Source of the DNA: a virus
Taxonomy: Duplodnaviria > Heunggongvirae > Uroviricota > Caudoviricetes
Length of the DNA stretch: 31,239 bases
IMG/VR virus record: IMGVR_UViG_2671180673_000015
Strand: one strand, 5' to 3'
Position numbers and translations under genes: made by a program. The notes beneath the pieces are model-generated. The model saw only the letters and a program-made list of their open reading frames with translations, did not search any database and was not told the origin of the DNA. The first letter of the stretch is position 1, and every line of letters begins with the position of its first letter. This document shows, piece by piece, positions 26,653-28,496 of this stretch.

Positions 26653-26762
26653 AACCCCACCTCGCAGACAAAGCGGTTGTAAATTGAGGGAATACTACGA
26701 AACGTAACAGACTCGGAGTCAGTGAATAACTCAGGTATTGGGTTATCAGCTAATATCGAGAC

Positions 26763-26797
26763 TCAAAAAATGGAAAAACCCGCTCGACGGCGGGTTT
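26763..26797 (-). terminator. Rho-independent terminator on the late strand about 110 nt upstream of S (candidate tR')
   Basis: Seen in sequence: - strand aaacccgccgtcgagcgggttt followed by ttccattttttgag. No - strand ORF ends here, so a regulatory role is inferred. Confidence 0.55.
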
Positions 26798-27224
26798 AAG
26801 CTGTGTGACGAAGTAACCACTCTTAACAGCATAACCAATTTTTTACGTACGTAAACCACTAAATGATATTTGCGAGAATGCTACCGAGTATTGAAAACAC
26901 CACTACAAATACATAAGCAAATCTCAACAAATAACCAACAAATAATTTCCAGCGTTATTTTTAACCGATTTAAATTGAACCTTCAAATTATAGAGCACTT
27001 ATAAATAACAGCCATTAATATAAATTGGCTAATAGATTTATTTTTATTCAGCCAAGAGCCATGAATAGGATTCGATAGAAAAAAGTTCAGATAAAAATAG
27101 AGATCTACTTCACAAATCAAACGAGAAACCAAAACTTACATCTTGAAATAATCACATTGATTAGATGAATATTTATCGCGCAGTGACATCATTTTTTAAT
27201 AATAGTTCAAAAAAAGGGCTCACG

Positions 27225-28307
27225 ATGAAAAAATTAACAGTGGCAATTTCTGCTGTAGCTGCATCAGTACTGATGGCGATGTCTGCTCAGGCAGCTGAAA
27301 TTTATAATAAAGACAGTAACAAGCTGGATCTGTACGGGAAAGTTAATGCTAAGCACTACTTCTCCTCTAATGATGCAGATGATGGTGATACTACTTATGC
27401 CCGTCTTGGCTTCAAAGGTGAAACCCAAATCAACGATCAACTGACTGGTTTCGGTCAGTGGGAATATGAATTCAAAGGCAACCGCGCTGAATCTCAAGGT
27501 TCTTCCAAAGACAAAACCCGTCTTGCATTTGCAGGCCTGAAATTTGGTGATTACGGCTCAATCGATTACGGCCGTAACTACGGTGTAGCATACGACATCG
27601 GTGCGTGGACTGACGTTCTGCCAGAATTCGGTGGTGATACCTGGACCCAAACAGATGTGTTCATGACTGGTCGCACTACTGGTGTTGCAACTTATCGTAA
27701 CAACGACTTCTTTGGTCTGGTCGATGGCCTGAACTTTGCTGCTCAGTATCAGGGTAAAAATGACCGCACTGACGTAACTGAAGCCAATGGTGATGGTTTC
27801 GGTTTCTCCACTACTTATGAGTATGAAGGATTCGGCGTGGGTGCAACCTATGCTAAATCAGATCGCACTGACGGTCAGGTCGCCTATGGTAAGAGCAAAT
27901 TCAATGCCTCCGGCAAAAATGCGGAAGTATGGGCTGCAGGCCTGAAATATGATGCGAACAATATCTATCTGGCTACCACATATTCTGAAACTCAGAATAT
28001 GACCGTTTTTGGTAATAACCATATTGCAAACAAAGCACAAAACTTTGAAGCAGTAGCACAATATCAGTTTGACTTCGGTCTGCGCCCATCTGTTGCTTAC
28101 CTTCAGTCAAAAGGTAAAGACCTTGGTGTTCATGGTGACCGAGACTTAGTCAAGTATGTCGATGTCGGTGCTACTTACTACTTTAATAAAAACATGTCCA
28201 CTTTTGTTGATTACAAAATCAACTTAATTGACGATAGTAAGTTTACCAAAACAGCTGGTATTGATACCGACGACATCGTCGCTGTAGGTCTGGTTTACCA
28301 GTTCTAA
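27225..28307 (+). CDS. nmpC: Outer-membrane general porin, NmpC/OmpD-type (OmpC/OmpF family), about 360 aa with signal peptide; apparently intact
   Basis: [47 protein letters not shown]...GLVYQF: porin signal peptide, C-terminal Phe, 16-strand porin hallmarks. Sits between Q and S on the opposite strand, as nmpC does in DLP12. Confidence 0.9.
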
Positions 28308-28315
28308 TCTGATTA

Positions 28316-28357
28316 CGAAAAAGATATGTTGCGGGAGGCGTTGCCTCCCCAACATAT
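28316..28357 (-). terminator. Extended hairpin (ATATGTTG-GGGAGGC...GCCTCCC-CAACATAT) with T-run on the - strand, about 140 nt downstream of Q (alternative tR' candidate)
   Basis: Seen in sequence: - strand atatgttggggaggcaacgcctcccgcaacatat followed by ctttttcg. It lies just after the nmpC stop on the + strand but the T-run is on the - strand. Confidence 0.5.
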
Positions 28358-28444
28358 AAGTGGCTCCCTCAAGCCACTTCCTTTAGAAGCACAACCTTGC
28401 TTCTAACTATATAAACCTTCTGTTATATATTACCCTTTATTTTT

Positions 28445-28476
28445 GGGGGCGTCTCAACGCCCCATTTTTAATAATT
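28445..28476 (+). terminator. Hairpin GGGGGCGTCTCAACGCCCC followed by ATTTTTAATAATTTTT on the + strand; likely nmpC terminator
   Basis: Seen in sequence, about 140 nt after the nmpC stop. Confidence 0.5.
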
Positions 28477-28496
28477 TTTAGTAAACAATTGGCATA

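Follow-up and report, generated by a model that had tools for sequence, protein, structure and literature searches.

Gene order at the locus

At the right end of the DNA stretch analysed here (IMG/VR record IMGVR_UViG_2671180673_000015, a virus of the Caudoviricetes; 31,239 nt, hereafter the window) lies the part of a lambdoid prophage that serves late control and lysis. Along the - strand it consists of ybcO (nt 29462–29791), rusA (nt 29103–29465), ylcG and the late antiterminator gene Q, followed by a porin gene on the opposite strand and then by the lysis genes S, R and Rz, beyond which are found bor (+ strand) and nu1 (Table 1). A preliminary description of the sequence had given the same order and strands (Q -, porin +, S -), together with two - strand hairpins followed by T-runs, one close to Q (nt 28316–28357) and one close to S (nt 26763–26797), and both of these elements are present. 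It had further proposed that late transcription has to run through about 1.1 kb of nmpC in antisense before S is reached, and on this point the current study comes to a different conclusion. Very probably, late control in the window is of the DLP12/PA-2 type, with cargo standing between the Q gene and the site at which Q acts: the late promoter, pR', lies beyond the porin gene, and the late transcript never crosses it. This reading is based on homology, on the co-variation between Q alleles and a palindrome in the promoter, on the invariance of the transcribed element, on the conservation of a terminator-like hairpin, and on the positions of all of these.

Table 1. Features of the late-control and lysis region, with positions in the window.
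Feature	Position (nt)	Strand	Remarks
Late antiterminator gene Q	28497–28880	-	type 2 (phage 82/933W family); = K-12 quuD; 127 aa; PF06530, E 3.5e-53
Porin 3' untranslated region (3'UTR), equivalent of ipeX RNA	28308–28468	+	five stem-loops, the last being the + strand terminator (28446–28463) with U-tract 28464–28468
Q-proximal hairpin and T-run	28318–28357	-	34-nt hairpin 28324–28357 (ATATGTTGGGGAGGCAACGCCTCCCGCAACATAT), then CTTTTT 28323–28318
Porin, NmpC/Lc type	27225–28307	+	intact, 360 aa; PF00267 (Porin_1), E 1.9e-151; opposite-strand cargo between Q and pR'
Divergent control region, from porin start to pR'	26857–27224		89–100% conserved as a block with the porin (80 IMG/VR loci)
Late promoter pR' (predicted)	26828–26855	-	-35 TTTACG (26855–26850), 16-nt spacer, -10 TATGCT (26833–26828)
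Palindrome, putative Q-binding element	26842–26855	-	14 bp, perfect, TTTACGTACGTAAA; overlaps -35 and spacer; changes with Q allele
Start site and invariant initial transcribed region	26801–26825	-	start about 26823–26821; TAAGAGTGGTTAC at 26825–26813 and bases after
tR'-like intrinsic terminator (predicted)	26765–26797	-	hairpin 26797–26776 (AAACCCGCCGTCGAGCGGGTTT), T-rich tract 26775–26765 (TTCCATTTTTT); about +27 to +58
Late leader and lysis cassette	25482–26764	-	leader 26764–26653; matches K-12 essD-rrrD-rzpD/rzoD
Holin S	26437–26652	-	P21 type; PF04971
R	25940–26437	-	lysozyme, PF00959
Rz	25482–25955	-	Rz1 embedded at 25541–25723

The Q protein of the window is a type-2 antiterminator. 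Residues 6–123 of a 132-aa ORF (nt 28497–28895) match PF06530 in a Pfam search, the same family to which the Q of phage 82 belongs. It shares 76% amino acid identity with the Q of 933W and 83% with that of Lambda_2E9, and its gene is 99% identical at the DNA level to quuD of K-12. In phage records the porin gene is labelled porin, OmpD or NmpC. The segment nt 26653–28496 is found at a coverage of at least 80% in 2465 of 5426 complete E. coli genomes, and also in 36 phage records.

Loci of this type, DLP12 (qsr') and PA-2, are already known, with their nmpC/lc porin, ipeX and Q-controlled essD operon. DLP12 of K-12 (quuD – ipeX/nmpC – essD rrrD rzpD) and the lc locus of PA-2 have the same gene order and strands as the window, and the same ipeX-type 3'UTR. 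Both control segments of DLP12, i.e. the ipeX region between Q and porin and a 106-bp pR' segment of the porin–S spacer, are 100% identical to the window. The nmpC gene of DLP12 is split by IS5 while the porin gene of the window is intact, and, unlike in DLP12, the nin region upstream of ybcO is interrupted in the window by an IS21-family element. In PMC7918800 (citing Rueggeberg 2013/2015), Q of DLP12 is reported to control the lysis operon, with a regulatory fragment just upstream of essD. What is added here is an assignment, at the level of sequence, of the Q-binding element (QBE), promoter, start site and terminator, and the description of the gap between Q and pR' as a recurrent site of opposite-strand cargo.

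Probable late promoter and transcribed element

The lead to the promoter came from a sensitive search with the porin–S spacer. A - strand segment spanning nt 26856–26766 is homologous to the region of phage 933W that is annotated as pR', 'qut' and first terminator, and aligns with it at 77–78% identity over nt 26774–26856. Common to the two are the -35 hexamer TTTACG, the 16-nt spacer, the block TAAGAGTGGTTAC and the hairpin stem, while the -10 hexamer is TATGCT in the window and TATCAT in 933W. A homologous -35, spacer palindrome, -10, transcribed element and first hairpin are likewise present in the other Stx phages compared, H-19B and the Sakai phages Sp5 and Sp15 (source of the StxS small RNA), the palindrome being ACGATCGT in Stx phages and ACGTACGT in the window. 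In 933W the end of the Q gene runs into the pR' region, and the module likewise overlaps the 3' end of Q in the Stx phages in general (gap 14 nt), whereas in the window the porin gene lies in between. The promoter/qut module is thus placed between porin and S, with a start about 170 nt upstream of S, and a transcript modified by Q at this site would therefore never enter the porin gene, contrary to the antisense crossing first proposed.

Across lineages, the positions T1, A2 and T6 of the -10 hexamer are always kept. The TAAGAGTGGTTAC element (13 nt, about -2 to +11), which overlaps the 'qut' annotation of 933W (ACATTGCC), is invariant across Q alleles that are 40–100% identical; it occurs once in the window, and is absent from the Q–porin spacer. 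The start site was taken from the Sakai Stx phages, where differential RNA sequencing (dRNA-seq) and Term-seq show that transcription from pR' begins beside Q and that the RNA ends 258 nt further on, and where pR' is active in lysogens and terminated downstream (PMC7547250). In the Sp5 sequence, the published start falls 5–7 nt past TATCAT, the homologous -10, and this corresponds to nt 26823–26821 of the window. A sigma70-type promoter on the late strand is accordingly found ahead of the late genes, and 85% of the ORF residues downstream of the motif are encoded on that strand.

We infer that the initial transcribed region is probably a sigma70-dependent pause and Q-loading region. At about +4 to +19 (nt 26801–26820, - strand) it can fold into a short stem, GUGG...(C/U)CAC, that is conserved in the homologues. 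Variants of the stem retain pairing (CCAC, UCAC with a G-U pair, or GUGAC/GUCAC), and the stem could belong to the Q-loading site, as a feature either of the nascent RNA or of the DNA. The pR' of phage 82, which was compared by its published description only (PMC5001585), has GCC at +15 to +17 and a pause at the U of +25; if the start is at nt 26823, the window has GTC (GCC in most relatives) at +15 to +17 and a T at +25. The AAA start and the extended -10-like pause element near TATAAT that also belong to this description are not seen in the window.

Co-variation of Q with the promoter palindrome

Since each Q protein recognises only its own binding site, a genuine qut is expected to change along with the Q allele. 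Retrieval with a Q alignment gave 80 IMG/VR loci, in all of which Q is 98–100% identical to that of the window. All 80 share the block of Q, spacer, porin and pR', though their porin alleles vary (85–100%). Representing a single Q allele, these loci cannot by themselves separate the two candidate sites of pR'. IMG/VR was then searched for the invariant motif TGNTAAGAGTGGTTAC, and the loci were pooled. The motif is found downstream of a same-strand type-2 Q (40–100% identical) in 171 loci, at a distance of -3 to 3040 nt from the Q stop codon; pR' abuts Q in about 35 of them, and the remainder carry inserted DNA. Matches on viral contigs with no Q upstream were taken as chance or truncated. A scan of genome contigs (596 Gb) with the 15-base motif returned, as expected, mostly chance matches in unrelated phyla, and was not used.

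When the distinct segments are aligned, an inverted repeat of 8–10 bp followed by an A-tract is seen about 10 nt upstream of the invariant element, and varies by lineage. Each of the 23 Q clusters has its own repeat, including ACGTACGT (window type), ACGATCGT (933W), GCGGTCCGC, GCGTACGC, TCGTTACGA, TGTTATAACA, TGTCATGACA and TGGAATTCCA. By Q cluster, the forms are TTTACGTACGTAAA for the Q of the window, TTTACGATCGTAAA for the 933W-type Q, and TTTACAATCGTAAA, GCGGTCCGC, GCGTACGC, TTCGTTACGAA, TGTTATAACA, TGTCATGACA and TGGAATTCCA for other Qs. Repeat mismatch is correlated with Q identity (Mantel rho -0.62; 0 of 999 permutations as extreme), and the repeat of the window is found only with Qs that are at least 94% identical to its own. 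Within the Q cluster of the window (at least 88% amino acid identity; 94–100% to the Q of the window), all 96 loci keep the order Q, porin, pR', with porin alleles of 85–100%, and 95 keep the palindrome, which in the one exception is replaced by an insertion. In the window itself TTTACGTACGTAAA is present in a single copy, and there is none in the Q–porin spacer.

Because its sequence changes with the Q allele across the 23 clusters, next to a transcribed element that does not vary, the palindrome is likely to be the QBE, specific for the cognate Q. A dimeric QBE within the promoter is the published description for both lambda and 82 (PMC4914094), and the co-variation has the pattern expected of such an element.

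The IMG/VR locus L096 has a Q only 47% identical to that of the window and the palindrome GCGTACGC, yet its transcribed region, hairpin and S leader are identical to those of the window (nt 26766–26830), which implies a recombination junction between the QBE and the transcribed region/start site. In another locus, L042, about 800 bp are inserted exactly at the palindrome and -35 (equivalent to nt ~26840–26860), with the -10 and the transcribed element left intact; this is a natural knockout of the putative QBE.

The S-proximal hairpin

According to the preliminary description, one of the two hairpins is probably tR', with the late promoter and Q site upstream of it. This is upheld for the S-proximal hairpin (nt 26797–26776), by its homology to the annotated first terminator after pR' in 933W, and not for the Q-proximal one. 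Among 62 distinct homologous segments, 45 have a hairpin (-7 kcal/mol or lower) with a T-run at +26 to +62, compared with 13 of 310 shuffles. Hairpins of at least 8 unrelated sequences fill this position, so that it is the structure that is conserved and not the sequence, and because of this conservation the terminator is considered real. Permissive terminator finding gives many weak hairpins, of which only compact, strong ones were considered; in the terminator scan no further - strand terminator appeared between this hairpin and S. An intrinsic terminator is therefore found between pR' and the first late gene, and should be a tR'-like element, which would yield a terminated RNA of about 50 nt. 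HnrS, a multicopy prophage small RNA, was considered as a possible identity of the short pR' RNA and rejected, as it is essentially restricted to enterohaemorrhagic and enteropathogenic E. coli (EHEC/EPEC) while the module occurs in about half of E. coli.

Porin 3'UTR, ipeX and the Q-proximal hairpin

The spacer between the convergent Q and porin genes is 190 bp in length. From the porin stop codon to the terminator, the + strand RNA (168 nt) folds into five stem-loops (dG -62.9, z -9.3), the last of which (GGGGCGTCTCAACGCCCC + ATTTTT; dG -13.9, z -3.4) is an intrinsic terminator that had not figured in the preliminary description and that ends the porin transcript. The ipeX RNA is described as 167 nt long and as part of the porin transcript, and the window has what is typical of an NmpC/Lc general-diffusion porin of the outer membrane, a 3'UTR of about 167 nt with an intrinsic terminator at its end. 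A scan of the whole window against Rfam at gathering thresholds gave no match, and hence no curated ipeX or late-leader family.

With the + strand terminator at this position, the Q-proximal hairpin falls within the porin 3'UTR, and it is the reverse complement of the first ipeX stem-loop. Read on the - strand it is highly stable (dG -21.3 kcal/mol, z -5.1; 0 of 200 shuffles equally stable), and it was missed by the simple terminator scanner owing to a bulge. Where Q meets convergent cargo of several other kinds, compact, strong hairpins are present as well. Most plausibly, the hairpin would end the Q (early-right) transcript on the - strand and so shield the porin gene from convergent transcription. 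This probable Q terminator on the - strand is positioned past that of the porin on the + strand (nt 28324–28463), and the convergent transcripts would therefore overlap by about 140 nt, with complementary 3' ends corresponding to the body of ipeX.

It had also been proposed that antiterminated late transcription yields antisense RNA to the porin gene, which might couple porin shut-off to lytic growth. Such RNA cannot arise from pR' as located here, since this promoter points away from the porin gene; antisense transcription of the porin would be possible only if early-right transcription, perhaps antiterminated, continued past the Q-proximal hairpin. A switch-off by late transcription of the kind proposed is the idea put forward for the tai/ati 'non-contiguous operon' of phi80, where an opposite-strand immunity gene lies inside the Q-controlled late unit (PMC11364771). 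Likewise, the porin of the window is an opposite-strand accessory gene, expressed in the prophage, beside Q-controlled late genes. Unlike in phi80, however, it lies upstream of pR' and outside the late unit, and for this reason the phi80 mechanism is inapplicable to transcription from pR'.

Proposed course of late transcription

In the arrangement proposed here, Q would be the last gene of the early-right operon on the - strand, its transcript most likely stopping at nt 28357–28318. The porin would be an independently transcribed, opposite-strand lysogenic-conversion gene ending at nt 28446–28463, with its structured 3'UTR of about 165 nt equal to ipeX. On the far side of the porin, RNA polymerase starting at pR' would presumably pause at the invariant transcribed element and there be loaded with Q. 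Without Q, most pR' transcripts would halt at the hairpin and U-tract as an RNA of about 50 nt; with Q present, acting in trans, polymerase would read through into S-R-Rz and the structural genes. Indirect support for Q-dependent read-through of the terminator comes from work on the Q of H-19B and 933W, reportedly that of Neely and Friedman (1998), and from the literature on Q of DLP12 and the essD operon.

Contrary evidence and alternative arrangements

Several observations weigh against this reading. The hexamers of pR' match the consensus at only 4/6 and 4/6 positions, below the threshold of the promoter scanner, and the best -10-like pause hexamer in the transcribed region is weak (TACTTC here, TACATT in 933W). 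In the K-12 transcription start site and Term-seq supplements examined (including the eLife Term-seq), essD, nmpC and quuD are not listed, nor is ipeX in the eLife set. The co-variation of Q and palindrome could come partly from linkage, a view countered by the invariance of the adjacent transcribed element. The S-proximal hairpin alone is of modest stability (about -8 to -11.5 kcal/mol), and in 31 IMG/VR loci of one type (L090) a G-to-T change at the equivalent of nt 26781 alters the 3' arm from GCGGG to GCTGG, and its predicted stability falls from about -8/-11 kcal/mol to -4.9 kcal/mol. Most 3' ends in the Sakai Stx phages map to a second terminator, giving a 258-nt RNA, so that in those phages the corresponding hairpin does not stop transcription strongly (PMC7547250); the window has neither that second terminator nor a StxS-like segment. 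Taken together, the modest hairpin, its weakening variant and the leaky Sakai homologue make some basal read-through into the lysis genes plausible, and the G-to-T variant may make the lysis cassette leakier in prophages of the L090 type. Basal read-through would fit reports that in K-12 the lysis genes of DLP12 are expressed and have a part in physiology (PMC7918800). A last point comes from Lambda_2E9, whose Q is 83% identical to that of the window and is followed directly by a different pR'-like promoter and terminator, and then by an opposite-strand lipocalin gene; from this, a late transcript that crosses an antisense moron is not impossible within the Q family. In detail (L005, nt 505–640), Q of Lambda_2E9 is followed by TTGCTG-17-TAATGT, then by AAATGTTAGAAT (extended -10-like), a StxS-like terminator and the lipocalin (Blc). 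Within this Q family it represents a second type of pR', which may be that of phage 82.

A layout of the latter kind for the window would be the classical one, with pR'/qut in the 190-bp spacer after Q, the hairpin at nt 28357–28324 as tR', and the Q-modified polymerase crossing the porin in antisense, and the second hairpin, on its way to S. It would agree with the position of pR' directly after Q in lambda and 933W, with the promoter-like site, extended -10-like element and terminator directly after Q in Lambda_2E9, ahead of an opposite-strand gene, and with the greater strength of the Q-proximal hairpin as a terminator (dG -21.3). The spacer, however, resembles neither the pR' region of 933W nor the sequence that follows Q in Lambda_2E9. 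The palindrome specific to the Q allele and the invariant motif are both missing from it, being found only at nt 26813–26855, and its + strand is explained by the ipeX 3'UTR, which carries a terminator of its own. The simple promoter scanner detects no - strand promoter-like site in the spacer, but as it also misses the S-proximal pR', finding neither candidate in the window, this result was not used as evidence either way. The classical layout is thus considered very unlikely for the window. It is similarly hard to credit that the two hairpins have no role in late control, being ordinary terminators of the convergent Q/porin pair plus a chance hairpin in the S leader. Terminator-like sites are indeed only modestly enriched in the region (7 found, 4.1 expected), and the S-proximal hairpin is weak and mutated in some loci, but its position relative to the invariant element is constant over at least 8 unrelated hairpin sequences, and it is homologous to the 933W terminator.

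A further alternative accepts the S-proximal promoter but regards it, in line with a proposal made for DLP12 of K-12, as mainly a host-co-opted sigmaE (RpoE) promoter of the lysis cassette, with Q acting together with sigmaE, in place of a lambdoid sigma70 pR'. Rueggeberg et al. (2015) reportedly found the -35 region to be needed for both the RpoE and the Q effect, which would agree with a Q site that overlaps the -35. Control of the essD operon by RpoE (Rueggeberg et al. 2015) and by Q (2013) is cited in PMC7918800. On the other hand, functional Stx and other lambdoid phages express their late genes from this very module, with its -10 pattern and spacing unchanged, and there it has been mapped as pR', and the conserved T1, A2 and T6 of the -10 together with the 16-nt spacing fit sigma70. 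A primarily sigmaE-driven promoter is therefore regarded as unlikely, and the sigma70 pR' beyond the porin is retained.

Adjacent sequences

An IS21-family transposase gene (istA-like; nt 29900–31072, + strand) is found right after ybcO, within nt 29828–31239. From its position, the nin/early region upstream of ybcO is interrupted or replaced by an IS21-family element, and Q may consequently be severed from the pR transcription that would normally reach it, in a prophage that may be defective. There are also 40 isolated N bases in the window, spread across the structural genes (nt 1174–24070) and clustered at nt 10056–10236 and 18831–21342, while the Q–porin–S region has none. These scattered Ns look like the consensus of near-identical prophage copies, or assembly ambiguity.

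Cargo between Q and pR'

Among the loci in which Q and pR' do not abut, the inserted DNA falls into about 28 sequence clusters (about 24 after removal of near-duplicate and mis-called ones). The long ORFs of this cargo are nearly always opposite to Q, in about 20 sets, as against 2–4 sets that are same-strand or complex. Besides the porin of the window, the cargo includes lipoproteins, a NYN nuclease, an NA37-like protein and an alpha/beta hydrolase. Known or candidate anti-phage systems are also found, i.e. Kiwa (KwaB, E 2e-150), PDC-S20 (E 1e-177), a PDC-M68-like HNH protein, PDC-M53 (in Shigella phage SfII), and an OLD/HEC-04-like ATPase with a Dcm methylase. Loci with opposite-strand anti-phage systems between Q and pR' are L087 (SfII), L101, L110, L117, L156 and others. 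Exceptions to the rule are Lambda_2E9 and a few loci with opposite-strand ORFs just after pR'.

One possible interpretation, offered tentatively, is that the gap between Q and a displaced pR'/qut in lambdoid phages with a type-2 Q is a dedicated cargo bay, filled by at least 20 unrelated sets, and bracketed by a terminator after Q and a pR' that points outward, with the repeat serving as a specificity code between Q allele and QBE. Bracketed in this way, cargo expressed in the lysogen could not read into the lysis genes, and late transcription could not collide with it.

For the locus itself, the transcription map would be corrected such that porin and ipeX lie outside the late operon, as cargo that is expressed in the lysogen and is insulated from late transcription, not silenced by it. 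For the late switch of the DLP12 type, comparison alone has located the probable Q-binding palindrome, along with the probable promoter, start site and terminator. About half of the E. coli genomes sequenced carry this module, and the lysis genes under its control in K-12 are implicated in envelope physiology. Since Q and its site can be separated by kilobases of cargo, it is unsafe to annotate pR' as 'just after Q', and the gap between Q and pR' is a good place in which to search for prophage-borne defence and conversion genes.

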